Shown here: piece after piece, positions 220-41,771 of the stretch
Numbering within the stretch: the stretch's first letter is position 1
Layout: each line of letters starts with the position of its first letter
From: a virus
Lineage: Duplodnaviria; Caudoviricetes
Virus record (IMG/VR): IMGVR_UViG_3300008262_003210
Direction: 5' to 3' (one strand)
Length of the DNA stretch: 64,000 nucleotides
Notes under the pieces: generated by a model
The model's input: the letters and a program-made list of their open reading frames with translations, nothing else
Told to the model about the DNA's origin: nothing
The model's database searches: none
Program-made: the position numbers and the translations under genes

Positions 220-231
220 AATCTCCCAAAC

Positions 232-239
232 GATAAATA
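232..239 (+). promoter_or_regulatory. T4-type late promoter-like motif GATAAATA
   Basis: Resembles the T4 late promoter TATAAATA and recurs upstream of many structural genes in this window. Confidence 0.6.
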
Positions 240-247
240 CTATTGAT

Positions 248-355
248 TACAAGAAACGACCAATTTCTTGTATGGTTAAACTGTGGTAAACCAGCAAAGA
301 GCCGTAAAAACGGATGCGGAGAAATCCTAAATGGTTAACCGTGAAACACGGGGTT
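248..355 (+). ncRNA. Putative structured 5' leader / cis-regulatory RNA upstream of the 1878-aa gene
   Basis: Hairpins: TACAAGAAA(248-256)/TTTCTTGTA(264-272); TGGTT(273-277)/AACCA(289-293); CCGT-AAAA-ACGG(302-313); GGA-GAAA-TCC(318-327); CCGTG-AAA-CACGG(339-351). No family assigned. Confidence 0.4.
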
Positions 356-367
356 TGAGGAGAGCTG

Positions 368-3300
368 ATGGCTGTTGGTCGTATTACCGGTCCACTCTTA
401 AAAGCGAATCTACTTCGTAATGGCGTAGATCTGGCTTTTGAGACCGACCTTTTATATTTAGATGTTAATAACGGCAGGGTCGGAATTAAGACGAGCCTAC
501 CTGACTACGACCTAGATGTCAACGGCACAACCCGTTCAACAAACTTAACAGCAACTACCCAAGCAGATTTAGCTACTTTTAACGTAGCAACAGATACTAT
601 TTCAAGTAGTAGTTCTATTATTAATTTACGACCAGCCGGTGCTAATCCTGTAGTTTATCAAGGTAAAATTCAAACAGGTGATTTACAACTTAGCACTAAC
701 ACTATCGAAACTACTGCAACAGACCAAGATTTAGATATCAACACACTTGGCACCGGGCAAGTAAATGTAAACGCAAATTTAAATGTTAACGGCGATGTGC
801 ATGTAACAGGAAATTTACAAGTTGACGGTGATGCTAGCGGAACAATTACAATCGGCGATGCTGACACAGATAATGTTGAATTTAAAGCAGATGTTAACAG
901 TAATATTATACCCGATGATAACGAAACTTGGGATTTAGGTAGCAATCCTACTTCTGGCGGAAAACGTTGGAAAACAGTTTACACTAAAGATTTAATAGCT
1001 CAGCAGATTACAGCATCAAATGTATTAGTTGACGGCATTGACCTAACGCAAATTCAAGGAAACATATATTATGTTGCTACAACTGGTAGCAATTCTAATG
1101 CTGGCGAACACGAGCATGATCCGGTATTAACATTAAAATATGCACTTAGCTTGGCAAATGCAGGCGATTGCATTTATATTTTTCCAGGCGTTTATCAAGA
1201 AATTTTTCCATTAACTGTTCCAGCAGGAGTAAGCGTTAAAGGTGCAGGTCTTCGTTCAGTTAAAATTACACCTACAGTAGGTACACGATTTAATGATGCA
1301 TTTTTGCTAAACGGTGAAACTACTATTGAAGATTTAACTATAGCAGATTTCTTTAGCACTTCGACAGCACAAATTACTTTATCCAGCGTACTTAATAATC
1401 CCAATGCTTACAGCACAAGTTCAAGTGATCAATTTGGTTGGTCAGTTGCTGTATCAGACAACTATGCTATAGTTGGCGCAGTATCAGAAGATGATGCAGG
1501 TGGGCAAAGTTCAGGTAAAGCCTATATTTTCAATACAACTACTGGAGCACTAGTACATACATTAAATAACCCCAACGCCTTTGGTACAAGTTTAGGTGAT
1601 CAATTTGCTTTGTCAGTTGGCATATCGGGCAATTATGCTATAGTTAGTGCAACTGTAGAAGATGATGCAGGCGGCACTGATTCGGGCAAGGTCTATATCT
1701 ACAACGTGACCACCGGCGCATTAATACGAACCCTAAACAACCCCAACGCTTACAGTACAAGTGGAGGCGATTTATTTGGACGATCAATTGCCGTATCAGG
1801 CAATTATGCAATAGTTGGCGCAGTATCAGAAGATGATGCGGGTGGTTCTAGTTCAGGTAAAGCCTACATATTTGACCTTACACATGCAAGTACCGACAGT
1901 ACCACTTCTGTACAAGTTGAATTTGGTGCTGCGGATAATCTAGACGGAACTTTCACTATTGATCTAGCTAGTCTAGGTATTACTGATCCAGGCGCTTTGA
2001 TTATTATCAATAGCGTAGATATTAGAGGAGACCTAAGTAGTAATGCAATCGAATATATAGATTTAAAATTAAGTACAGCAGCCGGTTATAATAGATATAT
2101 CTCAGGCTTTGATGATGCTACTTATAGAAATTTCGCCTGGCTTGGAGGTCAACCAACTAGTGTTGGAAACGTCAATATAGATTACATAATTCCGCCTGAC
2201 ATAAATTTTAGCCCTACTGGTATGCCTAACGGATATTTTTGGCAGGTAAGACTTAATATAACAGTAACTATTAGTGCATTAAGACATGTTTTAAATAACC
2301 CCAATGCTTACAGCACAAGTGGAAGTGATAATTTTGGTTTGTCAGTAGACATATCAGACAATTATGCAATAGTTGGTGCATATCTAGAAGATGATGCGGG
2401 TGGATCAGGTGCAGGTAAAGCCTATGTTTTCAACGTGGCCAGTGGCGCATTAGTACAAACTTTAAATAACCCCAACGCCTTTGGTACAAGTGTAAGTGAT
2501 CAATTTGGTTTGTCAGTTGGCATATCAGGCAACTATGCTATAGTTGGCGCATACCCAGAAGATGATGCGGGCGGCACTAGTTCAGGTAAAGCCTATATTT
2601 TCAATGCAACTACTGGTGCATTAATACACACTCTAAATAACCCCAACGCCTATAGTACAAGTGCAAGTGATCAATTTGGTTTTTCAGTAGACATATCAGG
2701 CAACTATGCTATAGTTAGTGCAAACGTAGAAGATGATGCGGGTGGTACTAGTTCAGGCAAGGTCTATATTTTTAGTACTATAAGCGGTCAGCTATTACAA
2801 ACTATTAATAATCCCAACGCTTACAGTACAAGTGCAGGTGATCAATTTGGCCATATAGTTGCAATATCAGGCAACTATGCTATGGTTGGCGCAATAGGAG
2901 AAGATGATGCAGGCGGCACTGATTCAGGTAAAGCCTATATTTACAACTTAACAGGTACTGTAGAAAACGGATACGCATTCCGTTTTGCTACCGGAATGAC
3001 TGTTACTAATCGTAGTCCTTATATTAGAAACGTAACAGTAATTACCAAAGGTTCAACTACAAGTGTAACCGATCCTTACGGTTTTGATAGCGGTGATGCA
3101 GGTAAAGGCGCATTAGCAGACGGTAGTGTAGTTAATGCTGCTAGTGTTGAAGCAAGTATGTTGTTTCATTCAGTAACATTTATTACACCTAATCAAGAAG
3201 CAATCACAGCAACTAACGGTGTACGTATTGAATGGTTAAATTCATTTAGTTATTTTGCTGATAAAGGATTATATTTAACAAGCGGACCTTTGGGTTTTGC

Positions 3301-6004
3301 TGGAGTTGGCCAAACACGTTTAAGAATTGAAAATCGTACAGGTACATGGGCAGTTGGTAATACTGTACTTTATTATAACACTGACGGAACTACTTTGTTA
3401 GCCAGCGGCACTATTTCCAGTATCAATGGAAACTATATTAATCTAGCAGGCAAATGTTCTGGATTTGAAACAATTACAGATAGAGTTGGTAAAACTGTTT
3501 ATGCTCAAGGCAACGCTAAACTTTCAACTAGTATTAGAAAGTTTGGTACTGCTAGTTTGGCTTTAGACGGTACAGGAGATTATGCAACAGTCCCAAGTCA
3601 ACCAGATTTTAATTTTGGAACTGGAGATTTTACAATAGAGTGCTGGATATATAGAAGCATATCTAACGTACAACATAACATACTTGATTTTAGAACAACC
3701 AATACACAAAATGCTCCCGTAGTCTACATTCAAAATACTAATCAGTTAACATATTACGTTAATGGTTCTATTAGGATTACAGGAACAACAGTATCAACAG
3801 GTGTGTGGCATCACGTTGCCCTGTCAAGACAAGGAACGTCTACAAAATTATTCTTTAACGGAGCCCAAGTTGGTTCTACATGGACTGATACAACTGACTA
3901 TATTCAATCTCCGTTAACTATCGGTTCTAGATTTGACGGCATATCTGGAAACTTTAATGGGTACATTGATGATGTTCGTGTTACTAAAGGACTAGCAAGG
4001 TATACTTCTACATTTATAACTCCTACAGCAGCGTTCGTGGGCGATACAGATACAGTATTACTATTACACTTTAATGGTACTAACAATTCAACAACATTTA
4101 TTGATGACGGCGTTACACTACAAGATTTACGAACTAATGCCGGTGGTACTGCAAGCCTAATCCAATTTGCTGATTATTCAGACTTTGGTGCTGAATTACG
4201 TGCAATTGGATCAGCAGCTATCTACGGTAACTATGGTGCATACGGCGAAGGCGAAGGTGTTATTGCCTATTTGATAAGCCAAAATTTTGCCTATGTAGGT
4301 TCTGGAAAAGTATCTACAAATGATCCTAATGACAGAATTGCAGCCAATGAAGTTACAAAACTCAACCTTGCTAAAATTTATTACACCAGTGTAGATAATG
4401 AAGGTAATTTTAGTATTGGAGATGCATTTTTTGTAAATCAAGAAACTGGTGATGTGTTGTTTAACGGTGAAAGTTTAAACATAACTGTTCCGGGCGGAAT
4501 AACATTTACCAACGGTGTAAATTCAACAACTATAACACCAACTGATGTCACTACTGGCAACATACGTATTAGTGGTAATACTATTGAAAGTATAACAGGC
4601 GATGTTAACGTAACTGCGGCCAGCGGATCAATTAATTTACAAAACAATACATTTATTACAGGTAACTTAGATGTAACGGGCGATATTATCCTCGGTGGAA
4701 ATATTCAAGTTGGTGATGCAAACACAGATACAATTAATTTTGTTGGTGGCATCAGCAGCAACTTAGTACCATCTACTACAGCAACATACGACTTGGGAAC
4801 TCCAAGTTTACGTTGGGATAATGTTTTCCTAAATCGTGTTGAAATTGATAATTTAGTAATTGACAACAATACTATTGAAACAACAACAAGTAACGACAAT
4901 CTAATACTTAAAGCAAATGGAACAGGTGTTGTTTCTGTACCTAATAATGATGTACTTATTGACCAAAATTTAACAGTCACCACTGACCTTACTGTTTCTA
5001 CTGGCACAACTTATCTTAAAAACACTGGGATTACTGGAACAGTTACTCAAACAGGTGATTTTAATCAAACTGGCGACTTTACTTCAAGCGGAACATTGCA
5101 AGTTACAGGAAATACAGAACTTACCGGATATTTAGATTTACCAAATATTAGTATTAACGGCAATACCATTTCTACAAAAACAGCAGGATCTGATTTGCTA
5201 TTATCTGCCAATGGTACTGGCGATGTTTTAATTGAAAACTTGTCAGTTGATGGATCTATAATATCAAGTACTGTTGCAGATTCTAGCATTACATTGAAAC
5301 CCTTAGGTCAAGGTATAGTAGAGATTGATAGTAATCAAAGTTTAAAATTACCTGTTGGCGGCGACAGCGATAGACCACTAACTCCAGCTAGCGGAATGAT
5401 TCGTTATAACTCAGATTTGAGCAGATACGAAGGATATAACAACGGCTACTGGTTAAGTATGAGTGGCGTTGCTGATGCAGACGGCAACACATATATTACA
5501 GCAGAACTTACCCCAGGTGCAAACGACAACACATTAAGATTTTATGCTGATAGTAGTCTAATGGTTACTATTGACGCTACAAAATTATATGCAGAGCGTT
5601 TACAAACTAGTAATTTAGACATACAAGATGACACAATAACTCCTATTTCTCCAAACAGTGATTTAAATTTATCATCTACTGGAACAGGAAGTGTAAGGTT
5701 AGGTAACTTGTCTGTTAAAAACAATACCATAACTAACATTGTGTCTGGAGCAGTAACACAGTTTTCTCAAACTGGAACTGGATATATAAAGATAGAAGGC
5801 ACCAATGGTTTAGTCTTTCCTAGCGGATCAGATTCAGACAGACCAGCAGCGCCTGTGCTTGGAATGATGCGATATAACACACAGCAACAGCTGGTAGAAG
5901 TTTATAATGGTAGCATATGGACTGGTGTTGCAGGATCGTCAGGCGGTGTAACTTTTGCAGAAGCTTCGGCTATTGCTATTGAATACGTGTTAGTTTTAGG
6001 ATAA
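368..6004 (+). CDS. Large virion structural/tail-appendage protein (1878 aa): beta-shaft repeats, pectin-lyase-like beta-helix, FG-GAP propeller, LamG-like domain
   Basis: Seven 57-aa FG-GAP-like repeats; LamG-like segment (FGTGDFTIECW...GYIDDVRVTKGLARY); repeated N.I.T...N.DL.L...GTG.V shaft motif; YYTSVDNEGNF motif shared with the 2900/3671-aa proteins. Confidence 0.8.
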   Translation: MAVGRITGPLLKANLLRNGVDLAFETDLLYLDVNNGRVGIKTSLPDYDLDVNGTTRSTNLTATTQADLATFNVATDTISSSSSIINLRPAGANPVVYQGKIQTGDLQLSTNTIETTATDQDLDINTLGTGQVNVNANLNVNGDVHVTGNLQVDGDASGTITIGDADTDNVEFKADVNSNIIPDDNETWDLGSNPTSGGKRWKTVYTKDLIAQQITASNVLVDGIDLTQIQGNIYYVATTGSNSNAGEHEHDPVLTLKYALSLANAGDCIYIFPGVYQEIFPLTVPAGVSVKGAGLRSVKITPTVGTRFNDAFLLNGETTIEDLTIADFFSTSTAQITLSSVLNNPNAYSTSSSDQFGWSVAVSDNYAIVGAVSEDDAGGQSSGKAYIFNTTTGALVHTLNNPNAFGTSLGDQFALSVGISGNYAIVSATVEDDAGGTDSGKVYIYNVTTGALIRTLNNPNAYSTSGGDLFGRSIAVSGNYAIVGAVSEDDAGGSSSGKAYIFDLTHASTDSTTSVQVEFGAADNLDGTFTIDLASLGITDPGALIIINSVDIRGDLSSNAIEYIDLKLSTAAGYNRYISGFDDATYRNFAWLGGQPTSVGNVNIDYIIPPDINFSPTGMPNGYFWQVRLNITVTISALRHVLNNPNAYSTSGSDNFGLSVDISDNYAIVGAYLEDDAGGSGAGKAYVFNVASGALVQTLNNPNAFGTSVSDQFGLSVGISGNYAIVGAYPEDDAGGTSSGKAYIFNATTGALIHTLNNPNAYSTSASDQFGFSVDISGNYAIVSANVEDDAGGTSSGKVYIFSTISGQLLQTINNPNAYSTSAGDQFGHIVAISGNYAMVGAIGEDDAGGTDSGKAYIYNLTGTVENGYAFRFATGMTVTNRSPYIRNVTVITKGSTTSVTDPYGFDSGDAGKGALADGSVVNAASVEASMLFHSVTFITPNQEAITATNGVRIEWLNSFSYFADKGLYLTSGPLGFAGVGQTRLRIENRTGTWAVGNTVLYYNTDGTTLLASGTISSINGNYINLAGKCSGFETITDRVGKTVYAQGNAKLSTSIRKFGTASLALDGTGDYATVPSQPDFNFGTGDFTIECWIYRSISNVQHNILDFRTTNTQNAPVVYIQNTNQLTYYVNGSIRITGTTVSTGVWHHVALSRQGTSTKLFFNGAQVGSTWTDTTDYIQSPLTIGSRFDGISGNFNGYIDDVRVTKGLARYTSTFITPTAAFVGDTDTVLLLHFNGTNNSTTFIDDGVTLQDLRTNAGGTASLIQFADYSDFGAELRAIGSAAIYGNYGAYGEGEGVIAYLISQNFAYVGSGKVSTNDPNDRIAANEVTKLNLAKIYYTSVDNEGNFSIGDAFFVNQETGDVLFNGESLNITVPGGITFTNGVNSTTITPTDVTTGNIRISGNTIESITGDVNVTAASGSINLQNNTFITGNLDVTGDIILGGNIQVGDANTDTINFVGGISSNLVPSTTATYDLGTPSLRWDNVFLNRVEIDNLVIDNNTIETTTSNDNLILKANGTGVVSVPNNDVLIDQNLTVTTDLTVSTGTTYLKNTGITGTVTQTGDFNQTGDFTSSGTLQVTGNTELTGYLDLPNISINGNTISTKTAGSDLLLSANGTGDVLIENLSVDGSIISSTVADSSITLKPLGQGIVEIDSNQSLKLPVGGDSDRPLTPASGMIRYNSDLSRYEGYNNGYWLSMSGVADADGNTYITAELTPGANDNTLRFYADSSLMVTIDATKLYAERLQTSNLDIQDDTITPISPNSDLNLSSTGTGSVRLGNLSVKNNTITNIVSGAVTQFSQTGTGYIKIEGTNGLVFPSGSDSDRPAAPVLGMMRYNTQQQLVEVYNGSIWTGVAGSSGGVTFAEASAIAIEYVLVLG
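1391..2950 (+). repeat. Seven 171-bp (57-aa) FG-GAP-like coding repeats, 3+4, split by an insertion
   Basis: Units LNNPNA(Y/F).TS..D.FG.SV.IS.NYAIV.A..EDDAGG..SGK.Y start at 1391, 1562, 1733, 2291, 2462, 2633, 2804. Confidence 0.9.
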
Positions 6005-6011
6005 AAAAAAT

Positions 6012-6341
6012 ATGGCAACCTCGTTTAATAATGCACTCCTATCAGAATTAGGACAAACAGAGCAAAATGTTTTTACTGTGGCTTCGAATGCTAGGGTAAC
6101 AGTTATTGGTTTAAGTTTTGCAAACTTAACTGATAGTGTTATACTAGCCAGTGTTAGAATACAAGGAAGTCCTAGCGGGTCAGCATATTTTTGTAAAAAT
6201 ATACCAGTACCACCAAATCAAAGTTTACGTGTAATTAACGGCGGCGAAAAATTAATTCTTTCTAGCGACATGACTATGTATGTTCAAGCTAGCCAAGAAG
6301 ACAGTTTAGATTTAATTGTCAGCTACGTTTCAATTACCTAA
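6012..6341 (+). CDS. Small virion-associated protein (109 aa), probable paralog of 26532..26858
   Basis: All-beta-like pattern; shares T.V(F/Y)TV...N...........(I/V)P...SL/VF...G..L.L with 26532..26858. Confidence 0.65.
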   Translation: MATSFNNALLSELGQTEQNVFTVASNARVTVIGLSFANLTDSVILASVRIQGSPSGSAYFCKNIPVPPNQSLRVINGGEKLILSSDMTMYVQASQEDSLDLIVSYVSIT

Positions 6342-6352
6342 GGAAAAGAATT

Positions 6353-6721
6353 ATGACATACTACGTTGGAGCAGTTAGTACAACAGATTTATTAGGAAAT
6401 GATAATCCTAGGTTCTTCTATGGATTGAGAAGAACAGAAGATGGTACTTTATACTTTACAAAATTAGGTCAGTTAATTGGAACTGAAGCAGTTAGAATTA
6501 ATATTGCAGGACCTGCATCAGAAGATTTTGAAGATTTTGAATATGGTGTAGATTTTTTTGATGGAAGGCTTGCCGAAGATCACAGCAGACCTTATGCTAA
6601 CTTAAATTTCGATCAATATCGCTGGGATCAACGGAATTGTTATTATTACATTAATACTAGCGGCGAACTAGTAATTAGAGTTAATCAAGCATACGTATAC
6701 GATCCATCACAAATTATTTAA
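6353..6721 (+). CDS. Hypothetical virion-associated protein (122 aa)
   Basis: Intact ORF with AAGGA RBS, tightly packed in the structural operon. Confidence 0.65.
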   Translation: MTYYVGAVSTTDLLGNDNPRFFYGLRRTEDGTLYFTKLGQLIGTEAVRINIAGPASEDFEDFEYGVDFFDGRLAEDHSRPYANLNFDQYRWDQRNCYYYINTSGELVIRVNQAYVYDPSQII

Positions 6722-6735
6722 TATAGGATAAAAAA

Positions 6736-9700
6736 ATGGCCGCAGAGTTTAAAATTTCCCGACTTAGATATAACTATCTTGGAGAATGGGACGTTGACGC
6801 ATTTTATAATCGAGATGCTGTTGTTACCTACGAAGGTAAACTGTATGTTTGTTTAGAACCACATACTTCTGGCACAACCCAGCCTACTTTTTATGATGCT
6901 CTTAATAATGTAACATTGGGAGCACCCAATCCTTACTGGGAAATAGTTATTGATTCAAGAAAATGGTCCGGTGATTGGCAAACAACAACGTTTTATAGTT
7001 TAGGAAATATTGTTCGTTATGGCGGGTCGTTGTATATTTGTACAGAACAGCATACTAGTGGCTTAGTTATTGATGAAAATAAATTTGACTTGTTTGCTAC
7101 CTCAAACGGCAATTGGGATAATACATGGGACGTAGGTATCGCATACGGAGTAGGCGATATAGTTAGATATGGCGGAATTCTATATAGATGTATTGAAAAC
7201 CACATATCCGCTGCCACTGTTGCGCTAGGCTTAGAAGAAGATCAAGCATCGTGGGCTGATTTTTTTGTTGGAGTCGAGTTTAAAGGAACTTGGAACAGCT
7301 CTGGTTACAGATACAAGAAGAATGACCTTGTAAAATACGGCGCTGACGTATGGATTGCAGAATCAGGCCACACTTCGTCATTAACATTTGACCAAACAAA
7401 ATGGGATTTATGGGCACCAGGGCAAGATTATACAGATTCTTGGAGCTCAAGTGTAACTTATCAAATAGGAGATGTTATACTATACGGCGGTTATACTTAT
7501 ACTAGTTTAGTTGCCAACAACTTAAACAATGTTCCTTCAGTTGATGCAATTTCTTGGGAGTTGTTAACAAAAGGATACAGTTTTGAAAACGACTGGAATT
7601 CCAGCACAAGTTACAAAGTAGGTAATGTAGTTAGAAGAGGTGGATTGATATATGTAGCTGTACAAGATAATAATAATCAAGATCCTACAAATCTTAGTGT
7701 ATCAAAAACTTTTCAATCATCAACTGACACAACAATTACTTTAAACAATACATCTGGATTAGTTCCAGGATTGATTATTACAGGTCCTAAAATATCTACA
7801 GGGCCGTCAATAGTAACTGTTATAGACGGATTGCAAATTAAGATTAGCGAATTATTTGACGGCTCTCTTACTACTGGAGATACTTTAGATTTTCGAGGAA
7901 TTAATTACATATATTGGAGTCTTGTAGTTCCTAGTGTAAATTGGAGAGGAATTTGGGAGGATGAGGTAGATTATTCTATAGGTGATGTTGTTTTATACGG
8001 CAATAAAACATATAAGTGTATTCAAAGCCATACTAGCTCTGAAATTACTGGCGATAAACCAACTTCTAATACTGGTTATAATTTTTGGATATCTTATTTC
8101 TATCATGCAAGAAGAAACAGTCTCACAGATCAGGGAGATATTAGAACTATTGCTGGAGGAGCATCAACTGTTGTTAATATTGGCGAACAAGACCAAGTAC
8201 TCCAAGCGTGTATCTATCTAAACGAAACAGGCAGTAATAGTGGATATGGTACTTCAGTTGAAATTCCTGACGGCGAAGTATTGCCAAAGTGGAAGAAAAT
8301 TTTAGTAAGTCCAAATCTGTTTTATGTTTCAGAAAGTGGAGTTGATGCACCAGGTTACGGGGAAACATGGGATAGACCTTGGAGAACAATTAAGTATGCT
8401 ACTGAGCGAGTAGATGCCGGCACAGAAAATCAAGGAATTAAAGCCTGTTTAGAAGCAAACAAAAAGTTTCTTACAACTGAAATGTATCAGTGGATGTTGT
8501 ATCAAAAACAATATACCATTGCTCCTTTCTCACCAACAAGTCAGTTTGATCCTGATAAAACTGTTAGAGATGCCAGTTATATAATTGATGGTGTTGTTTA
8601 TGACTTGTCTCGCGGAGGCAATGCACAAACCGTTATAAATGCAAGAGCATTTTTTAACGCTGAAGGCAGGGGCGGCTATATCAATTCATCAGTTGAAGCA
8701 CAAATGCCATTCTTTATTGCCGCATTAAATAGACTCAAAACATTAATGTTAAGCAATGTTTTAATTGGACAAGTACCAACAACATTATACCAAGAAGTAA
8801 ACGGTATTACACCTGGCGACATTATAGAAATGCAAACAGGATTCATAACAGGATTCTTAACTGATGTTGAAACATTATTAGATATTGTTATAGATGCCCT
8901 CACTGATGCAACAACAGATAATATCCCGTACCCAAATAAAGGGTTAACGGCAACAATCATGGTAAAAACAGGAACTTATGAAGAAGAACTACCAATTATA
9001 GTTCCTGAATACTGTGTTATCCAGGGAGACGAGCTTAGAGGTGTAACTGTAACACCAAAAACAGTTATCAATACATTTACAGAAACAAGTGTATCTGGCA
9101 GTACAACTCCTGCTACCACAACATTGACAGGTGCTGTTGGCCATAGCGAGTGGGATTTCAGCACAGACGGAACAGTAACTTTAACTGCAACAGGCTTGCC
9201 GTACCATAGTTACGGAAATTTAGACGATCCTAATACACCTGATGATATTGAAATTGATAAAACATTTCCGTGGAGAGGTGGTACTGATATTTCAGCAGAA
9301 GATAAAGTTGCAACAGATCCAGGAACAATAGGTTATTGGATTAACGGTGTTAGTATTGTAAGCCCTAATGCTGGTACTGATGCACCAGATGGTTTTGTTG
9401 CGTTGTCGGGTTTTAATTACAATAAAAGCGCATATACAGCATTTGCATTAAACTATTCTTGGGGAGCAGATGATGCCGGCGGATTTTCTTCCGCTGACGG
9501 TACATATCATTACACTGACTTTAGTTTTGATTTATCATGGACTAGTGGTGATGGCTTTGTGAGTGGCAATAATAATACAGGATCTAGTGAGTTAAGCGAA
9601 ATTCCTTATTTGAGCGGTTCTTTAACACAAGCAAACGGCCATAGCAAAATCATCGGTATAAGTCTAGACGGCTATCCAATATACGGTCCATTTGGTTATA

Positions 9701-12700
9701 CCGATCCTCTTAGTTCTACTGGTGGTGTTTCGTTGATGGAGTCTGGATATACTTTTAAAAATTCTAACTACCGAGCAGGAACAGCTGCAAGTAATCTTAC
9801 ACAGTATCCAATGGGTATGTTTGTACAAGATTACGAATTTACAGATGCAGGTACACTAGATGAACACAATGGACGCTATTGTGTAACTCCAGAATATCCT
9901 AACGGAACTTATGCATATTTTGTCACAGTAGATGCCGCAAATTTATATCCAGTATATCCGTACGTTATTGGTAACACATACTACGCACAACCAGCTGCAG
10001 AAGCACCAACAGCAACTACTGAAGGTGCTGGAGGCGGCTTTGCACCACTAGGATTAGATATTATTTTTACAGGCGGATATTTTAACTGCTACAGCACACA
10101 GAACATGTCTGCCGACGAGCCAATTCAATTTGTGTCAACATCTAGCTTTATTACTAATTTAGATCCGTTTGAAACAGCCGCAATCACAGCAGGTAAAACA
10201 TATTATGTAGTTGGCGACACATTAACCGCAACAACATTCCAGGTTGCAGAAGTGCCGGGAGGAAGTCCTATTGGTCTATCTGGTGGCAATGGATTCATGC
10301 AGATTATTGGCGGCGATGCAACCAAAGATATGTTCCGTATAAGAAATGCTACAGGATTAAGAAATTTAACATTAAAAGGTTTATTAGGAACACTAACCCC
10401 AGTAAACGAATACTTGACAGCAAGACCAACTGGCGGAAGTTATTGTGCTTTTGATCCAGGATCAGGACCTGACGATACTAAAACTTGGATTAAAAATAGA
10501 AGTCCGTATTTACAAAACGTAACGTTATTTGGATCTGGTTGCTCGGCCATGAAAGTTGACGGGACTTTACACAACGGTGGCAATAGGTCTATGACTGCCA
10601 ACGATTTTACTTGTGTACTAAGTGACGGTATTGGTGCATGGATTACAGGAACAGAAAGTAAAGCAGAACTTATTTCTGTGTTTACTTACTATAACTATGC
10701 AGGTTATTTTGCAGAAGACGGCGGAAGAATTCGTGCAGCTAATGGAAACTGTTCTTACGGAGAATTTGGCGCTATTGCAGAAGGATTTGACTTAGAAGAA
10801 GATCCTATTACTGCCACTGTTGATAATCAAACTTTTCAAGCTAGTGCAAGTGTGCAACAATCGTTTGGATTACAAGCGGCATTATTAAAATTACAATATA
10901 GTAACGCAGGTATTGAATACATTCAAACAGTTACTAATTTATTAAATCACAGTAATAACTTTTTAGGTGCAGGATGGACTACAGACGGCAACGTAAACTT
11001 ATCTAAAAATTTAATAGCACCAAGCGGATTGAATGATGGATGGACATTTAATGGTACAACATCTAATACAGATAGTTCATACATTTATAAAAACGTAACT
11101 ATACCCCCTCAAGGAGCAATCTACACCAACTTAGCTGGTTCAAACATTTCAGGAAGTGGTAGTGGTGCAACATTTGACGTAACTGTCACTGCAACAACTT
11201 TTAGTGTTGTAGTTTCATCGTTAGGATCAGGCGGTGTTGGTTATGTTTTAGGAAATCAAATTACAATCTACGGAAGTCAAGTTGGCGGTCTAGATGGTGT
11301 TAACGACATTACATTAACTGTTGCAAGTCTAGTAGGTTCGACTATTATTACAGTTTCTGCTGCGGGTACTGTTCCAGCAGGTTCTGCACTAAGATACACA
11401 TTTAGTATTCATGCTAAAAAATCAACATCAAACGTATTTGATTTATACGCCATATTCACAGGATCAAGCACACGAACAAGCTCTGTTACGTGGAATTTTA
11501 ACACCAGAACATTGACTTCTACAGATTTTGGAGACGGTGGTTTAGTTCCCGGTGTTGCATATAGAGGAGTTGATTATTTAGACAATGACTGGTACAGAAT
11601 TTGGTTCTCTGTCTATGATACTAATGCTCTTAATAATACTGTGCAACTAAGAATCTACCCAAGGGGCAGATTAGGAACTACTGGAGCAACATCATTTTAC
11701 GGAGCTCAGGTGGAAATTGGAAGTTCTCGTAGATTCTATCTTTCTACTACTACAGGATTATACGATGCGTATGCAGATTACATTATTAGCGGTGCAGGTG
11801 TTGATGCACAATTAGTAGCTGACGAAACAAGATCTAATTCTGTTTATCAGTCACGAATTACAGATCCAGGATCTGGCGCAGGTGGTACAGGATATTTAAT
11901 TGCAAGCAACAATGCACAAGGTGGCAATGCATCGTTTATTATACTTGCACAATCAGATATTAACACAGCTGCTAATTATAACGGAATGAGAATATTTGTT
12001 AATAGCGGTACTGGTGCTGGACAATTTGGATTTATTTCTAATTATGACGAAAACACAAAAATTGCTTCTGTTTTAAAAGAATCTGTGACACCACTGACAA
12101 TCAGTGCTGTATCAACAGCCGATGATTCATTTACACTTAGCGATACAGCAGATGATATTGGTACGTTGTACATAGATCAACCTGTGCAATTTATTCCAAC
12201 ATATTATAGTACTAGTGTTACTAATACATCAGAAGAATCATATCCAATTATTTCTATTGTAGGCGGAACAGTAAACACTATGGCAATGGCTAATACTGCT
12301 GTGCTTTATTATAATATGCCTATTAAATTTAGCGGAAATATTCCAGAAACAGCTGGGGTGATTGCAAACTTCACATATTTTGTACAAGAAATTGTTGATG
12401 AATTCTATTTTAAAATTACAAGTACATCATTTGGTCCAGTACTTCCGTTATCAGCAAATACACCAACAGGAATGAACATTGACATTCCGTCAAATACTAG
12501 TTACTTAAAAGTAACTTCAACTGCTGGAATGGCTGCAAATATGCCAATTCAATTTACTGGTACAGCATTAGGCGGCATCAGTTTAGGACAAATTTACTTC
12601 ATTCACGATGTAATTGATTCAGTAAGATTATCTATCTCTACATCATTGCTGTCACCGGTAGTTACTGCAACAGATTCAGCAAACAACAGATTATCTGTTA

Positions 12701-15438
12701 CAGCAACTGGAAGTTTAGCTCCGTTAGCTCCGATTGTATTTTCTGAACCTACTATTGGAGGAGTAACACCAGACGTCAAATATTATATTAGTAAAATTAC
12801 TAGCGGAACATCTTTTAGAATTGCTGATAGTATATTAAGTGTTACAGTTTCAGAAACTTTCTTTAGCACAAACCTAATCAAGTGTGATTCAACATCAGGC
12901 TTTGTTCCAGATAACCCAATTAAATTTACAGGCAACGGTTTTGGAGGCATTACCGCAGAACTAACTTATTATATTCTAGCTGTTAACGATTCTACTACAT
13001 TTACGGTAGCAAGTTCAGTTGGCGGTTCAAGTATACCGCTCACAACAGCCAAAGGATATATGGTTGGAAGAACCTGCCCCGAAGAAGTTAGTGTTGTAAC
13101 AGATGCTGGATCGATGAATGGAAAAACAACCATTGCTAAATCTACAATAACAAGAGGTTCTGGCGCAATTATGAATGCGGTATTTTCTACTCCAGTATTT
13201 GGCGGAGTTGAACAAGGAACAACATACTACATTTCAACCATAACCCCAGGCGCTCCTAATAAAATACAAGTATCAGATACTATAGGAGGTGCCGTGTTTA
13301 ATCTAACAACAGGCACCGGTACTATGAAAATTGGTGAAGTTGGTTGGGATCATGTTAATGCTGGAACACAACCTGTTACCGCGTTTGATACAACAACTTT
13401 ATACTTTATAGAACCAAGACTTACCTATTCAGAACCTCCATTTACGCAAACAGATACAACACTACCTACGGCCGGTGCAGGCACATTCTATACGGCTATA
13501 GCATACGGAGATAACTTCTGGATTGCAGTACCAAATGGAAATACAACTATTGCTGGATCGTCTAATGGTAGCTCTTGGTCAACTTATACATTACCAGTAA
13601 CTTCTCCGTTAACGTGGTCAGATATCTGCTATGGCAATACTGCGTGGGTATTGATTGCTACTGGTACGGATAAAGTACTTTATTCGTTCTCAAAAGGTCA
13701 ATCGTGGAAAACAGGAACCATGCCTAGTGTCAGCACTTGGTCAAGTGTAGCTTATTCAAACGGTGTGTTTGTAGCCATCGCAACAGGAACAGCAAATGCT
13801 GCTTATTCAATAAACTATGGAGCAACATGGACTCCTAGTACTATTCCAGGAACAGGCTCAGGAACCTATACAAATATTGCATCTGGTAAGGGCAATTTTG
13901 TGTTCTTAGAAAATAATACTACAAAATATTATGTTAGTGAAGATGAAGGTGCAACCTGGACAGAGTATAATACTTTGCCGTTATCTGCATCCTGGACAAG
14001 AGTGTCTTATGGTAACGGAAGATTCGTTGCTACAGCAGACTCTTCGGCAACTCCAGTCTACAGTTTAGACGGAGGTTTAACTTGGACTGCTTCTCCTCAA
14101 AGTATTGATGCTAAAGTTCTAGCATATGGTAACGGGGTGTTTTTAGCATTAAAAGCGAATAATGCTTTTAGTTGGCAAAGTGAAGATGGAAGAGTTTGGA
14201 GGAAGAAAGCTACTACTCTTGTTGACTATGAAGATGCAGCTTTTGGATTTACTCCTTTACATCCTGGAAGATTTGTTACTTGTGCAGGATCAACTGCTGC
14301 AAGTACAATAGTTACAGGATCTAAAACTAAAGGCAGACCTATTGTAGAAAGTGGAGTTGTAACGGCAGTTACTGAGTTTGAAACAGGTGGTGGCTATCTT
14401 GTTGCACCAATAGTAACTTTATTTGATCCAAACGTAACCACTGCTGCGACCATAGAACCAAGATTAGGAAACGGCACATTAAGTGCGCCAACTTTCTTAA
14501 ATCCTGGAGAAGGATACAATACCAGTTCTACTACTATTACAATCAATGGTAGCGGCTATGCGGAAGAGTTTCAAACTGGATTAGGCATTAGAGTAAGTAA
14601 TTTAACTCAGCTACCAAGGCCAGGTGACGATTTAGTTGTTACTGGTGATGCTACTATTTACAAAGTTACTAATGCAACTGCTTTACGAGGCAGCGTAGCA
14701 CCAAACTTAACTGCTGAAATTCAAATTTCACCAGATATGAGTATTGCACTAAGTCCAGATCATGCAACGCCGTTGATTATTAGAGAAAGATATAGTCAAT
14801 GTCGATTAACCAACCATGACTTCTTAAATATTGGATTTGGTGACGAAAGAGAATCTGGATATCCAGCACCAGTTCCAACAGTTAATACACTACAGTCGCA
14901 AAATCAGACAATTGAAAATCATTTTGGTCGTGTATTCTATACAAGTACTGACCAAGACGGTAACTTTAAAACTGGTAGTTTGTTTGGAGTTGAACAAGCC
15001 ACTGGTATTGTTACTTTAAGTGCTAGTCAATTTGGATTATCAGGACTAGAAGTACTAACACTTGGTGGTATTGCAGTTGGTGGATCAAGCGTTGTTATTA
15101 CTCAGTTTAGTAATGACGCAACATTTGTTGCTAACAGCGATAGTGTAGTTCCAACACAGCGAGCTATTAAATCGTATATGACAGCTCGTTTGAGCCAAGG
15201 TGGTTCAAATACATTTACAGGAAATACTACAGCAGGTAGTATTACAATTGGAGGTCCAAATGTCATGGGTAGCACTATCCCAGCAGGAACTCCAGGATAC
15301 GGAATATTCATGCTAAACCGAGTGAATTTTGATGGTTTAGAAAATGGTATGGTTGATGGTGATATGCCAGCATTTAACTTTTTCATTCGTGGAAAGGGTG
15401 TTGAACGGTTAGTCGACCCAAGTCGCATTATAAGATAA
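6736..15438 (+). CDS. Giant virion structural/tail-appendage protein (2900 aa): CBM5/12-like Trp repeats, YHYH domain, beta-helix, BNR/Asp-box-like propeller
   Basis: Seven W....Y..GD.V.YGG..Y.C...H.S repeats; YHYH-type motifs (GLPYHSYG, DGYPIYGPFGY, LDEHNGRYCVTPEYPNGTYAYF); RSPYLQNVT beta-helix; W..VAY.NG.FVA repeats; C-terminal RLTNHDFL..G.G...RVFYTSTDQDGNF. Confidence 0.85.
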   Translation: MAAEFKISRLRYNYLGEWDVDAFYNRDAVVTYEGKLYVCLEPHTSGTTQPTFYDALNNVTLGAPNPYWEIVIDSRKWSGDWQTTTFYSLGNIVRYGGSLYICTEQHTSGLVIDENKFDLFATSNGNWDNTWDVGIAYGVGDIVRYGGILYRCIENHISAATVALGLEEDQASWADFFVGVEFKGTWNSSGYRYKKNDLVKYGADVWIAESGHTSSLTFDQTKWDLWAPGQDYTDSWSSSVTYQIGDVILYGGYTYTSLVANNLNNVPSVDAISWELLTKGYSFENDWNSSTSYKVGNVVRRGGLIYVAVQDNNNQDPTNLSVSKTFQSSTDTTITLNNTSGLVPGLIITGPKISTGPSIVTVIDGLQIKISELFDGSLTTGDTLDFRGINYIYWSLVVPSVNWRGIWEDEVDYSIGDVVLYGNKTYKCIQSHTSSEITGDKPTSNTGYNFWISYFYHARRNSLTDQGDIRTIAGGASTVVNIGEQDQVLQACIYLNETGSNSGYGTSVEIPDGEVLPKWKKILVSPNLFYVSESGVDAPGYGETWDRPWRTIKYATERVDAGTENQGIKACLEANKKFLTTEMYQWMLYQKQYTIAPFSPTSQFDPDKTVRDASYIIDGVVYDLSRGGNAQTVINARAFFNAEGRGGYINSSVEAQMPFFIAALNRLKTLMLSNVLIGQVPTTLYQEVNGITPGDIIEMQTGFITGFLTDVETLLDIVIDALTDATTDNIPYPNKGLTATIMVKTGTYEEELPIIVPEYCVIQGDELRGVTVTPKTVINTFTETSVSGSTTPATTTLTGAVGHSEWDFSTDGTVTLTATGLPYHSYGNLDDPNTPDDIEIDKTFPWRGGTDISAEDKVATDPGTIGYWINGVSIVSPNAGTDAPDGFVALSGFNYNKSAYTAFALNYSWGADDAGGFSSADGTYHYTDFSFDLSWTSGDGFVSGNNNTGSSELSEIPYLSGSLTQANGHSKIIGISLDGYPIYGPFGYTDPLSSTGGVSLMESGYTFKNSNYRAGTAASNLTQYPMGMFVQDYEFTDAGTLDEHNGRYCVTPEYPNGTYAYFVTVDAANLYPVYPYVIGNTYYAQPAAEAPTATTEGAGGGFAPLGLDIIFTGGYFNCYSTQNMSADEPIQFVSTSSFITNLDPFETAAITAGKTYYVVGDTLTATTFQVAEVPGGSPIGLSGGNGFMQIIGGDATKDMFRIRNATGLRNLTLKGLLGTLTPVNEYLTARPTGGSYCAFDPGSGPDDTKTWIKNRSPYLQNVTLFGSGCSAMKVDGTLHNGGNRSMTANDFTCVLSDGIGAWITGTESKAELISVFTYYNYAGYFAEDGGRIRAANGNCSYGEFGAIAEGFDLEEDPITATVDNQTFQASASVQQSFGLQAALLKLQYSNAGIEYIQTVTNLLNHSNNFLGAGWTTDGNVNLSKNLIAPSGLNDGWTFNGTTSNTDSSYIYKNVTIPPQGAIYTNLAGSNISGSGSGATFDVTVTATTFSVVVSSLGSGGVGYVLGNQITIYGSQVGGLDGVNDITLTVASLVGSTIITVSAAGTVPAGSALRYTFSIHAKKSTSNVFDLYAIFTGSSTRTSSVTWNFNTRTLTSTDFGDGGLVPGVAYRGVDYLDNDWYRIWFSVYDTNALNNTVQLRIYPRGRLGTTGATSFYGAQVEIGSSRRFYLSTTTGLYDAYADYIISGAGVDAQLVADETRSNSVYQSRITDPGSGAGGTGYLIASNNAQGGNASFIILAQSDINTAANYNGMRIFVNSGTGAGQFGFISNYDENTKIASVLKESVTPLTISAVSTADDSFTLSDTADDIGTLYIDQPVQFIPTYYSTSVTNTSEESYPIISIVGGTVNTMAMANTAVLYYNMPIKFSGNIPETAGVIANFTYFVQEIVDEFYFKITSTSFGPVLPLSANTPTGMNIDIPSNTSYLKVTSTAGMAANMPIQFTGTALGGISLGQIYFIHDVIDSVRLSISTSLLSPVVTATDSANNRLSVTATGSLAPLAPIVFSEPTIGGVTPDVKYYISKITSGTSFRIADSILSVTVSETFFSTNLIKCDSTSGFVPDNPIKFTGNGFGGITAELTYYILAVNDSTTFTVASSVGGSSIPLTTAKGYMVGRTCPEEVSVVTDAGSMNGKTTIAKSTITRGSGAIMNAVFSTPVFGGVEQGTTYYISTITPGAPNKIQVSDTIGGAVFNLTTGTGTMKIGEVGWDHVNAGTQPVTAFDTTTLYFIEPRLTYSEPPFTQTDTTLPTAGAGTFYTAIAYGDNFWIAVPNGNTTIAGSSNGSSWSTYTLPVTSPLTWSDICYGNTAWVLIATGTDKVLYSFSKGQSWKTGTMPSVSTWSSVAYSNGVFVAIATGTANAAYSINYGATWTPSTIPGTGSGTYTNIASGKGNFVFLENNTTKYYVSEDEGATWTEYNTLPLSASWTRVSYGNGRFVATADSSATPVYSLDGGLTWTASPQSIDAKVLAYGNGVFLALKANNAFSWQSEDGRVWRKKATTLVDYEDAAFGFTPLHPGRFVTCAGSTAASTIVTGSKTKGRPIVESGVVTAVTEFETGGGYLVAPIVTLFDPNVTTAATIEPRLGNGTLSAPTFLNPGEGYNTSSTTITINGSGYAEEFQTGLGIRVSNLTQLPRPGDDLVVTGDATIYKVTNATALRGSVAPNLTAEIQISPDMSIALSPDHATPLIIRERYSQCRLTNHDFLNIGFGDERESGYPAPVPTVNTLQSQNQTIENHFGRVFYTSTDQDGNFKTGSLFGVEQATGIVTLSASQFGLSGLEVLTLGGIAVGGSSVVITQFSNDATFVANSDSVVPTQRAIKSYMTARLSQGGSNTFTGNTTAGSITIGGPNVMGSTIPAGTPGYGIFMLNRVNFDGLENGMVDGDMPAFNFFIRGKGVERLVDPSRIIR

Positions 15439-15469: not shown

Positions 15470-15477
15470 GATAAATA
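15470..15477 (+). promoter_or_regulatory. Late promoter-like GATAAATA
   Basis: About 24 nt upstream of the 3671-aa gene start, followed by AAGGA RBS. Confidence 0.65.
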
Positions 15478-15500
15478 TGATATCAAAGGAATAATTTAAA

Positions 15501-31292: not shown

Positions 31293-31889
31293 TCACCATA
31301 CACCAAAGTTAACTACACATCTGTGTCCGGTAGTTGGCCTAGTGCTAGTATGATAACGAGAGCCATCAAATACGATGGCTCTTCCTTTTTTAGGTGTAAT
31401 ACTCTTAAAAATTTGTAAATTTTCTTTTTTAAGATCATCAGGCGGAATGTCTCTAAAAGTTTTGTCATATATTACAGTATCTCCGTCGCTGTCTGTAACA
31501 TAATATAGAACTACAATATGACTAACTTCTCTATCAACATGCGGATGGTCTAATGCACTTTCTAAATTTGGCAGTGGGATAGTTAAAAAACTTCTTGCAG
31601 CAATAACTTCGTTTACATGAAATTTAATTTTTTCGCAAGCATTATATACAATAGGTAAAACTAGTCCGTATCCAGGACTGATAATTCCAGCAGTCCTGTC
31701 ATAGAATTTATGAGCAAATGCAGGTTTAGCAACTGCTACATTTAATTCGTTAAATTTTTCATTGTCAAATGTTATATCTCTCATATAATGCCAAGTTATA
31801 TTATTTCCCAGCATCTGAGTTTCTATCAAATCTTGATATTGTTTAGGAACAATATCATCTAATACAACAACGTCGTCTATTATAAGCAT
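31293..31889 (-). CDS. Fe(II)/2OG dioxygenase (HxD type), 198 aa
   Basis: PHVD...VLYYV.DSDGDT...KGRAIVFDG..YH.S..P....R.V.N. Confidence 0.8.
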   Translation of the reverse strand: MLIIDDVVVLDDIVPKQYQDLIETQMLGNNITWHYMRDITFDNEKFNELNVAVAKPAFAHKFYDRTAGIISPGYGLVLPIVYNACEKIKFHVNEVIAARSFLTIPLPNLESALDHPHVDREVSHIVVLYYVTDSDGDTVIYDKTFRDIPPDDLKKENLQIFKSITPKKGRAIVFDGSRYHTSTRPTTGHRCVVNFGVW

Positions 31890-32461
31890 ATTGAATTAAA
31901 TGAAATAACTATCCTTGGTTGCGTTCCTTGATACACGTCGGCATCGTGTAGCAACATACTAGGAAATAAAACTAAATTTCCAGGAGAACAATTAACAGTA
32001 AAATGTTCATCGGCAAATTCTAAACCAAGTTTTCTTTCCATGTAATAAGGCAAGTACCAGTTATTACTTCCTCCTTTATTGTTTTCACTATCAACATAAA
32101 AAATACCAGACCAAGTTGAACCAGGGTGATGATGGGGTTTGTGATACCCGCCACATCTAGTAACATGTGCCCAACTTTCGGTAATTACTGTTCTGTAATT
32201 AGTGTTGTTAAAATTATTAATTAATGCAGTAGATTCTTGTATCAACCATAATTTTAAATTATTAATATCTGTTTGTTTTTCTAAAAAATCAAACGATGAC
32301 TCCCATAAATTTAATTTGGCATTAACTGCTATATTAGATTCTACAGTATTAGGGATTTCAGCTTTAAGGCAAGTCTCGACTATTGTTTTCTTATTATCCT
32401 CAAATTCTTTCCATGTACTTGTAAGTAAAGGAATTTTTCCTAATAGCGTAAATTGTCTCAT
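31880..32461 (-). CDS. Putative Fe(II)/2OG dioxygenase, TIGR02466/PF13759-like (HxH), 193 aa
   Basis: ESW.......YH.PHHH....WSGIFYV...G.LVLFPS.L.H...R..ISFN. Confidence 0.8.
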   Translation of the reverse strand: MRQFTLLGKIPLLTSTWKEFEDNKKTIVETCLKAEIPNTVESNIAVNAKLNLWESSFDFLEKQTDINNLKLWLIQESTALINNFNNTNYRTVITESWAHVTRCGGYHKPHHHPGSTWSGIFYVDSENNKGGSNNWYLPYYMERKLGLEFADEHFTVNCSPGNLVLFPSMLLHDADVYQGTQPRIVISFNSICL

Positions 32462-33195
32462 TTATCTATCTCTAAATCTTTAGATTCTAAAATGTATTTT
32501 ACTTTATTTTTAATAAAACTTCTCCAACCAAATCTTGATAGTTTGTTTAAATTAAGAAGATTAGAAAATCTTTTATGATCTTTTTCAGTATATGATTTAG
32601 ACTCTGCGTGTATAGTTTCTCTTTTATAAGGAATCACTTGCACTAACGGATCACCCATTTTAATTAATGTATCTTTTTTTTCAAAAAACATTAGATTTAT
32701 AGGATTGCGATTTAGCATACTATCTGTATCAACTATTGCGGGTAATGCTTGATAATTTTTATTGTGATAAAAATAAGGCAACCACATTAGGCCATACCCT
32801 TGTTCGGTTACAATACTCCAGGGGCTATTTAATTTAATAGACATTCGTAATTCAAACTGATTGCCAATAGTATCTCCTATCTGTTCCGAAGAATGAATTT
32901 CATACCCGTAATCAGTATTGCTCATTTCTATTTTTACAGAATCCTCAAAAAAAGATACTTGTATATCGCACCATGCAGGAATGATATAACCTGCTTTTGT
33001 ATAATTTGATATAGCCGGGCATTGCCTAATTGTTAACTGACTTGCAGATTTACTGTGGTCAAAAGGACAAATCTCACCAACCGGCAGATTTTTAAATTCG
33101 TCAGGAAAGTATTTTTCTGCCGGAATAACTGGAGCATAGTTTCTTATAGCCCAATCAGGACAACTAAATGTTATTTGATTATTACTCATTGGCAA
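32458..33195 (-). CDS. Conserved hypothetical protein, dUTPase-like beta fold (DUF6065-like), 245 aa
   Basis: QCPA....GY.IP...D; K..SPW...T..GY; IKMGDPLVQVIP; paralog of 39555..40256. Confidence 0.5.
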   Translation of the reverse strand: MPMSNNQITFSCPDWAIRNYAPVIPAEKYFPDEFKNLPVGEICPFDHSKSASQLTIRQCPAISNYTKAGYIIPAWCDIQVSFFEDSVKIEMSNTDYGYEIHSSEQIGDTIGNQFELRMSIKLNSPWSIVTEQGYGLMWLPYFYHNKNYQALPAIVDTDSMLNRNPINLMFFEKKDTLIKMGDPLVQVIPYKRETIHAESKSYTEKDHKRFSNLLNLNKLSRFGWRSFIKNKVKYILESKDLEIDK

Positions 33196-33772
33196 ATATA
33201 TCCACTGATATTGTCAGTGTCATAACTAGCCTATTTTCTTGACTAGAATTTATTTCAGTTTTATGATGTAAAAATCCAGGGAAAAAGATCACATCATTCT
33301 GGTTAACTTCTAAAATAGTCCAGTCATTTTTGTTATTTTTTGGAAAACCAGAAAATGTATATTGTAACGGATCTTTAAACATTATATTTCCGCCTAATTT
33401 AGGTTGTTTTAAATAGATAACAATATTTTGATGACACATTGCATGATCATGCTCATCTGTCCATGCGCCTGGGGGATGTAAGTTTACCCAGCTTCTGTGT
33501 ACACGTCTTGGACGGTCAACAAAATTAGATGTATCCCACACTATTTTACTTTGTTGAATTAACCACTCTTTTAGATCTTTACAAACAGGATCATTAATTA
33601 AGTTGTTTATAGTACTGTATGTAGACTTGCCACCGTTTTTTTCTAAATTATGATTTGAATTTTCATTAAAGTATGTCAAAAATTTACTAGAAATATTTGT
33701 TAAATCTCCGGGATAAACAGATTTATGTATTAAACTAGGCCAAAGATTTATGTGTTCGATTGATGACGTCAT
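33182..33772 (-). CDS. Putative Fe(II)/2OG dioxygenase, TIGR02466-like (HxH), 196 aa
   Basis: RSWVN...G..T.EHDH......YL...GG...F.DP...FFP..L.H......R.V. Confidence 0.8.
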   Translation of the reverse strand: MTSSIEHINLWPSLIHKSVYPGDLTNISSKFLTYFNENSNHNLEKNGGKSTYSTINNLINDPVCKDLKEWLIQQSKIVWDTSNFVDRPRRVHRSWVNLHPPGAWTDEHDHAMCHQNIVIYLKQPKLGGNIMFKDPLQYTFSGFPKNNKNDWTILEVNQNDVIFFPGFLHHKTEINSSQENRLVMTLTISVDIFANE

Positions 33773-33773
33773 A

Positions 33774-34361
33774 TTATTCTACCAATTCGATCCACGTTGA
33801 CATAATGTATTTTGTTCCAGACAGCGGAGGATTTCCTCGATGAGTGTGTGTATAACTTGCAGGCGCAATAATCATTGTTCCCCGTTTTGGCGGGATTCTT
33901 ACAGACTGATATAAAAATTCTGTTTCCCCACCATGTTCAATATCATTTAGATATAGCAACACAAATGCCAGTCGTCTTGCTGTTCCTATGTTTGCATGTT
34001 CACAATGCCATACATGATAGCCTTGCCTAGGTTCTGTTTTTTGTATTTTTACAGATTCACTTATGGCTTGTTTTGATATACTATTCAAAACTCCAATTTC
34101 ATTAGAATACGATAAAAAATTAGCTCTAATTGATTGATTAAATTCTTTTAAAATATTACTGTTGATATTAATTATAAAATCGTCAACCTCGTTTTCAACA
34201 AAATACTTTTCGTCGTCTTTGTTAATTTTTAAAGCACCGTCGTGTTGCTGTCGATTTAACGTTCTCCCTTCAGATTGCATTCTTTCAAAATGTGCAATCG
34301 CTCTATTACAGAAATCATCTGTTACAGAATTTGAATAAACTTTTATAAAAAAATCATTCAT
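33774..34361 (-). CDS. Fe(II)/2OG dioxygenase, prolyl-4-hydroxylase-like (HxE), 195 aa
   Basis: KIQKT....GYH.WHCE...R.L...LYLND...GGETEF.YQ....P..G.....P..YTH.HRGNPP....KYI...W. Confidence 0.85.
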   Translation of the reverse strand: MNDFFIKVYSNSVTDDFCNRAIAHFERMQSEGRTLNRQQHDGALKINKDDEKYFVENEVDDFIININSNILKEFNQSIRANFLSYSNEIGVLNSISKQAISESVKIQKTEPRQGYHVWHCEHANIGTARRLAFVLLYLNDIEHGGETEFLYQSVRIPPKRGTMIIAPASYTHTHRGNPPLSGTKYIMSTWIELVE

Positions 34362-35943: not shown

Positions 35944-35973
35944 GTTACTCCAATCTAATGTATATAATAATTA

Positions 35974-41176: not shown

Positions 41177-41182
41177 CGCGCT

Positions 41183-41770: not shown

Positions 41771-41771
41771 A

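Follow-up and report, generated by a model that had tools for sequence, protein, structure and literature searches.

A covarying pseudoknotted mRNA leader upstream of a giant fiber gene in uncultured aquatic T4-like phages

The leader region and its surroundings

The window (the whole 64-kb stretch of phage DNA that was analyzed) contained a 148-nt gap, read directly from the sequence, between a stop codon at 217-219 and the ATG at 368. A reading made from the letters alone (the sequence-only reading) had called this gap the longest in the structural block, and it was so by far: elsewhere in this + strand block (368-31292) the gaps measured 0-62 nt. The late promoter claimed for the same gap was also present, in the form of a T4-type -10-like element, GATAAATA. 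Features of the leader that follows this element, and the gene that it precedes, are listed in Table 1.

TABLE 1. Positions in the window of the leader features and of the gene directly downstream.
Feature	Position	Strand	Remarks
T4-type late promoter, -10-like element GATAAATA	232-239	+	Predicted transcription start ~245-246
H1, 9-bp hairpin	248-256 with 264-272	+	Loop CGACCAA (257-263); compensatory changes in all nine pairs
Linker	273-279	+	Corresponds to the 5' ATGGTTAA copy; usually 7 nt, variable sequence
A280 C281	280-281	+	Conserved, after the linker
Pseudoknot core with S1	282-296	+	S1 = U282-A296, G283-C295, U284.G294; encloses L1 and the S2 5' strand
L1 (G285 G286 U287 A288)	285-288	+	4 nt, within S1
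S2 5' strand (AACCA)	289-293	+	Partner at 332-336
L3, variable loop	297-331	+	Long two-hairpin form here (P2a and P2b), A-rich 3' end
P2a hairpin (CCGU-AAAA-ACGG)	302-313	+	Inside L3
P2b hairpin (GGA-GAAA-UCC)	318-327	+	Inside L3, GAAA loop
S2 3' strand (UGGUU)	332-336	+	Within the 3' ATGGTTAA copy (331-338)
P3 hairpin (CCGUG-AAA-CACGG)	339-351	+	Compensatory variants in relatives
Spacer after P3	352-358	+	7 nt here; fixed length, variable sequence
Shine-Dalgarno (SD) GGAG	359-362	+	7 nt after P3; second spacer, then ATG 368
1878-aa fiber/baseplate-wedge-like gene	368-6004	+	Directly downstream of the leader

The 1878-aa protein matched two PHROGs annotated as baseplate wedge subunit, PHROG 13163 and PHROG 1469 (E 1e-199 and 4e-165, respectively), and its Pfam domains were seven copies of FG-GAP together with Laminin_G_3. 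An AlphaFold model of the N-terminal 100 aa of this protein was poor (pLDDT 66, pTM 0.35). Downstream of the gene lay giant paralogues and fiber-assembly-like genes. The giant fiber genes probably decide host recognition. One other late promoter was found in the block (15470-15500, with GATAAATA at 15470), and it preceded a 3671-aa gene (15501) with an unstructured leader of ~22 nt. Since this late promoter serves its giant gene without a structured leader, the long leader is specific to the 1878-aa gene.

Farther along the window, on the - strand, three tandem genes (34354-39606) matched PHROG 2928, tryptophan halogenase (E 1e-146, 5e-99, and 3e-88). These genes were flanked by long same-strand runs of ORFs of ~190-245 aa (31293-34361 and 39555-44744). 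Tryptophan-halogenase-like genes are unusual cargo beside a tail module.

A small hairpin (CCCU-GAUACU-AGGG) was seen at 203-216, ending just before the upstream stop codon. It was not conserved in relatives, where the sequence of this region tracked the C-terminus of the encoded protein (...FW[ST]LILG). A candidate leader peptide (MVKLW, from the AUG at 272) was rejected, the AUG being missing in most relatives.

Folded as a single sequence, the window leader had a minimum free energy of -40.6 kcal/mol, only modestly better than that of shuffled sequences (z = -2.15). The case that the leader is more than chance therefore came from comparison with its relatives and not from the single-sequence fold.

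Occurrence of the leader and covariation of its fold

The 5' half and the 3' half of the leader each supplied an independent 17-base pattern, and each pattern matched at least 119 IMG/VR contigs. Among the unique matches listed for the first pattern, ~105 of 107 preceded a gene starting MA[VI]GRISGPLLK. Metagenome loci were also fetched by protein N-terminus alone to remove ascertainment bias; at least 583 relatives were found and the best 80 were kept. A covariance model (R1) was built from 98 leaders and used to search these 80 best protein-selected loci. The motif immediately preceded the start codon in 79 of them; the remaining locus had only 11 nt of upstream sequence. In IMG/VR, loci picked by way of the protein also had this leader in front of this gene. 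Over the 774 kb of 93 loci, the model gave one hit per locus.

The window itself scored 93.8 bits against the model (E 9e-22) over the full model length, and this was its one real hit. It contained every part by which the family was defined: H1, the core ACNGUGGU-N-ARCC-N-GCNA, S2, a hairpin, and an SD at fixed spacing, all before a gene beginning MAxGRISG. The N-terminus MAxGRISGPLLK of the served gene was conserved in all leader carriers. A weak second R1 match (33484-33610, - strand, 17.6 bits, E 0.044) fell inside a coding region and was probably due to chance.

One carrier contig (L221) was named as Tara Oceans, and the lower-scoring clade (40-58 bits) had the same variant form of the motif. 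In another contig (L006:3001-5617), an upstream paralogue that was 34% identical to the query and had a different N-terminus lacked the motif, while the motif was found at 5513-5617 before the next gene. The leader thus singles out one particular paralogue of the fiber array.

Searches of 50,697 phage records by blastn and tblastn turned up no cultured phage with the leader or with the gene N-terminus, and returned only weak matches (E >= 5e-3) and chance matches of 19-24 nt. A scan of genome contigs with a loose pattern (15 fixed bases) returned at least 120 loci, which were chance matches with the downstream half of the motif in none, and it gave no clue to a host. Overall, judged from these sequence matches, hundreds of T4-like phages, all uncultured and aquatic, have the leader before the fiber gene. 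It is limited to such phages and tied to one gene, the first of the giant fiber gene set.

Covariation among these relatives indicates that the leader is almost certainly a real folded RNA forming a distinct family. In the protein-selected set, 95.0% of cells were paired, as against 36-42% (~39%) when the partners were slid. Double (compensatory) changes occurred in 18 of the 26 pairs in this set, and the observed values were reached by none of 500 shuffles. The diverse set (A4) gave similar values: 91.2% of cells paired, 20 of 26 pairs with double changes, and 0/500 shuffles. Alignments fitted to the covariance model tend to favor H1, S2, and P3. This bias touches neither S1, which the model did not include, nor the unfitted MAFFT alignment (A1), which gave the same picture as the fitted alignments. 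The sequence-only reading had proposed an unannotated structured RNA in the mRNA leader and had named covariation among homologous leaders as one of its checks. That proposal was borne out, the leader being conserved and covarying in relatives. Frequent G.U pairs placed the structure on the sense-strand RNA.

All nine H1 pairs showed compensatory changes, both in A1 and in the fitted alignments. The H1 stem varied in sequence while the core of its loop, GACC, was conserved. The first S1 pair was UA in 52 members of the protein-selected set, AU in 15, and CG in 1, and was never unpaired; the third S1 pair was UG in 60 and UA in 8, with no mismatch. Five of the six S2 pairs showed compensatory changes, and the remaining C-G pair (alignment columns 80:137) never varied. 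The S2 changes included A-U to U-A and C-G, A-U to G-C, and C-G to U-A, and the closing pair was C-G, A-U, U-A, or G.U. The A.A apposition flanking S2 was replaced by C-G or U-A in a divergent clade. Most relatives had one bulged base in the S2 3' strand, and the window had none.

S1 crosses S2, which gives an H-type pseudoknot with a 3-bp S1, a 5-6-bp S2, no linker between the two helices, and a 4-nt L1. This pseudoknot was missing from the sequence-only reading, which had described five short hairpins. Four of these were simple hairpins as described (H1, P2a, P2b, and P3); the fifth was one helix of the pseudoknot.

L3 was 7 nt long (AUGYAAG) in 54 of 93 relatives. In the other 39 it was 19-48 nt long, held one or two covarying hairpins, always began with AAGAG, and had an A-rich end. 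P2a and P2b of the window, which has the two-hairpin form, are thus optional decorations. A loose resemblance to GNRA-rich riboswitch-like motifs had been suggested earlier; these two hairpins are inserts absent in over half of the relatives.

P3 showed compensatory CGGUG/CACCG variants and, in divergent clades, its site was occupied by another hairpin (GGSA-CAGGA-USCC or UUGGGU-GUGA-UACCCAA). P3 lies 2 nt away from S2 and probably stacks on it. The hairpin GGSA-CAGGA-USCC was seen in a subset of the loci L200-L257 (e.g., L251:1398-1503 and L221), and its conserved loop holds an SD-like AGGA. Beyond what pairing alone requires, invariant bases were found inside the helices and in L1.

The ACC of the H1 loop (259-261) could pair with G285 G286 U287 of L1 in 87-96% of cells. 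Changes between these two elements were one-sided (GGCC, GAUC, and GACU in the H1 loop) and all wobble-compatible, and several clades without the ACC loop retained GGU. A kissing pair between the two is raised here as a possibility only. The flank GGGGUC after P3 (e.g., in L031, L034, and L055) was also complementary to the GACC of the H1 loop and was absent in the divergent clade. By complementarity, then, the H1 loop has two candidate partners: the GGU of L1 and the P3 flank.

Rfam 15 (4227 models, including riboswitches, ribozymes, and phage and metagenome motifs) gave nothing overlapping the fold (245-351) at E <= 10 when the window was scanned from 1 to 1000. With four divergent members as queries, nothing was found at E <= 1. 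The leader thus matches no catalogued RNA family in these scans; the sequence-only reading had likewise been unable to place it in a known one. A literature search by keywords and by motif strings gave nothing relevant to the leader.

Spacing, the initiation region, and candidate roles

The promoter motif NNTAAATA was found in 92 of 93 diverse relatives and, in 66 of those, ended 7-8 nt before the first H1 pair. The element of T4 late promoters is -10-like and lies at the -10 position (PMC7892883). Taken together, this position and the promoter-H1 distance predict a transcript start 1-3 nt before H1. At the other end of the leader, 7-8 nt separated P3 from the GGAG in 76 of 92 relatives and 16-18 nt separated it from the start codon in 82 of 92, with variable sequence in the spacer.

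The SD was predicted to be largely free, its pairing with the leader averaging 0.13. RNAalifold run from P3 to +60 gave no consensus structure and no conserved helix masking the SD. Likewise, the leader showed neither a terminator nor a conserved alternative pairing able to hide the SD. With no terminator seen, read-through from the upstream paralogue is possible.

Codon 4 (377-379; GGU) and codons 8-12 (389-403; G P L L K, encoded by GGU CCG CUC UUA AAG) were nearly fixed at synonymous positions, and the same codons were used in L001-L257. Codon entropy was much lower at these positions than for the same amino acids farther downstream; for codons 8-12 it was 0.64-1.52 bits against a background of 0.97-1.98 bits. 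Codons 8-12 were complementary to the SD region (GGAGAGC or GGAGCG). The duplex between the SD and these codons was stronger than with synonymous recodings, at a mean z of -0.98 with 55% of sequences below -1, and a control window had a mean of +0.18, with 8% below -1; the sequences in this comparison are related and some clades lack the helix. These statistics are suggestive of RNA-level selection extending into the fiber ORF. The complementarity may represent a helix masking the SD or the footprint of a regulator. It was only partly conserved, and the SD may pair weakly with codons 9-11.

The leader is probably a new control element for fiber production, and control of translation initiation in some form is about as probable as its absence. 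Positions 245-367 of the window would be the 5' leader of a late mRNA running at least over the genes at 368-15438, and the leader would act in cis on that mRNA. Its compact pseudoknot-P3 block, held 16-18 nt from the start codon, would lie where the 30S footprint has its 5' edge, and there set or gate initiation of the giant fiber gene. Consistent with such control, the distances from P3 to the SD and start codon and from the promoter to H1 were fixed, the leader of the 15470 promoter was unstructured, and the helices and L1 held invariant bases in excess of pairing needs; T4-type phages also offer a precedent in the gene 32 leader pseudoknot (PMC3014915). The most likely way for the block to act would be as an operator for a trans-acting factor, like gene 32 or rpsO. 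This factor would be a phage protein, possibly the unassembled fiber or an assembly partner. In the proposed scheme the SD would not be masked by the leader, though it might pair weakly within the early codons, and H1, lying so close to the predicted 5' end, would shield an mRNA of more than 15 kb from 5'-end-dependent decay. Against control of translation stands the lack of a conserved SD-hiding pairing in the leader or, by RNAalifold, from P3 to +60. Additionally, the constant spacing could have a purpose that involves no factor, such as a ribosome standby site or enhancer, and a 5' hairpin with a stable pseudoknot is explicable by mRNA stabilization alone.

That the pseudoknot is a new riboswitch-class aptamer, or an assembly-feedback sensor bound by unassembled fiber or baseplate protein, is offered tentatively and is doubtful as it stands. 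If either were true, the giant receptor-binding fibers of a lytic phage would be made in tune with the state of the host or of virion assembly.

A role limited to stabilization, in which H1 and the pseudoknot block RNase E or a 5'-to-3' exonuclease and leave initiation unaffected, is unlikely. The position of H1, which in most members begins ~2-3 nt into the predicted transcript, and the exceptional length of that transcript (>15 kb) are in keeping with it, as is the T4 gene 32 leader, which also joins regulation with unusual mRNA stability (PMC3014915). A hairpin alone would suffice for this purpose, however, which leaves the sequence-invariant pseudoknot core unexplained. Nor would stabilization explain the fixed 16-18 nt to the start codon with a spacer of variable sequence, or the absence of such a leader from the giant gene that follows (15501). 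Together with the invariant bases inside helices, a spacer constant in length and free in sequence argues for a role beyond stabilization.

The pseudoknot could instead be the aptamer of a riboswitch that binds a small molecule or ion reporting host state and so tunes fiber synthesis. The fold is conserved, supported by covariation, and directly upstream of the SD, and its H-type pseudoknot, A-rich L3, near-invariant paired and unpaired bases, and peripheral hairpins of variable length are hallmarks of small pseudoknot aptamers such as preQ1-I and SAM-II. No expression platform was found (neither a terminator nor a conserved SD-sequestering alternative, with only the weak, partly conserved complementarity of the SD to codons 9-11), no riboswitch model in Rfam 15 matched, and the regulated gene is structural, whereas phage riboswitches mostly control metabolic genes. 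Moreover, a macromolecular partner that co-evolves with the leader would account for the clade-specific P3 loop at least as well as a ligand would. The lack of a recognizable expression platform and the structural-gene context weigh against a classical riboswitch, which we regard as quite improbable.

A self-cleaving ribozyme or an independent small RNA, rather than an mRNA leader, would agree with a compact pseudoknotted fold that has conserved unpaired bases, and small ribozymes are common in phages. This is nonetheless very unlikely: no Rfam ribozyme or small RNA model matched at E <= 1 (E <= 10 for the window), and the element always abuts the SD and start codon at fixed spacing, with its own promoter and no terminator.

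Least probable of all was the translational switch put forward in the sequence-only reading, in which two copies of ATGGTTAA compete for AACCA and so form mutually exclusive ON and OFF folds. Direct reading did place the copies at 272-279 and 331-338 and AACCA at 289-293, as described, and both 5-bp pairings are possible in the window; the pairing of the 3' copy (332-336) is, however, the constitutive and compensated helix S2, while the 5' copy (273-277) falls in the non-conserved linker, where TGGTT was present in only 9 of 93 relatives and its variants UGAUU and UGGUC were uncompensated. The alternative fold of the 5' TGGTT with AACCA may form transiently in this phage and is not a selected feature.

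Comparison with known systems

The fiber leader is classed here as a new RNA family within the structured cis-acting leaders of phage mRNAs. To our knowledge, structured leaders controlling phage structural genes are almost unknown. Neither a riboswitch on a structural gene nor another pseudoknot operator among T4-type phages would have a precedent, and a ligand or protein partner, if found, would add a new class of phage riboswitch or translational operator. The leader is abundant, with at least 583 relatives of its gene in one metagenome scan and the motif in 79 of the 80 examined. Its sequence can mark this phage group and the fiber operon, and it provides a test case for whether phages regulate fiber and baseplate stoichiometry post-transcriptionally. 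As a covariation-proven pseudoknot of ~105-130 nt, it is suited to structural and biochemical work.

The small H-type pseudoknot riboswitches have the same topology as the fiber leader and also lie in translational leaders. In preQ1-I and SAM-II/SAM-V, a short S1 directly abuts S2, and an A-rich L3 is able to line the groove of S1. The fiber leader differs from these riboswitches in having no covariance model match, in placing its SD outside S2, and in its extra H1 and P3 modules. H1 would resemble the hairpin of the ompA leader, a 5'-terminal stabilizer that lies within a few nucleotides of the mRNA 5' end, in its closeness to the predicted 5' end. The conserved GACC loop and the downstream pseudoknot of the fiber leader are without counterpart in ompA.

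In Escherichia coli rpsO, a pseudoknot beside the SD can sit on the 30S platform, and structure at the 5' edge of the footprint can gate initiation. The rpsO pseudoknot includes the SD and start region. In the fiber leader the SD and AUG lie outside the fold, and the two are not homologous. They are alike in having a pseudoknot near the SD. The rpsO (S15) operator is named in PMC3014915.

The gene 32 leader of T4, T2, and RB69 contains an H-type pseudoknot with coaxial stems, upstream of the ribosome binding site in the 5' leader of a T4-type phage mRNA (PMC3014915), and the fiber leader is like it in these respects. The gene 32 pseudoknot is an autogenous operator acting on translation, and that 2010 paper regards it as perhaps the sole pseudoknot in viruses with a role in translational autoregulation. 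The gene 32 leader combines regulation with mRNA stability (PMC3014915), the same combination that is proposed here for the fiber leader. The two leaders are unrelated in sequence, and gene 32 encodes an ssDNA-binding protein whereas the gene served here is a fiber/baseplate gene. In gene 32 the knot is ~67 nt upstream, and between it and the ribosome binding site runs an A+U-rich tract, unstructured and containing UUAA(A) repeats, which gp32 coats. In the fiber leader, by contrast, the knot is followed by the P3 hairpin and a 7-8-nt spacer with no A+U-rich tract, and it is accompanied by a 5' hairpin and optional inserted hairpins. By analogy, the fiber leader would work most like the T4 gene 32 leader, with which it shares, of that leader's defining features, only the pseudoknot.
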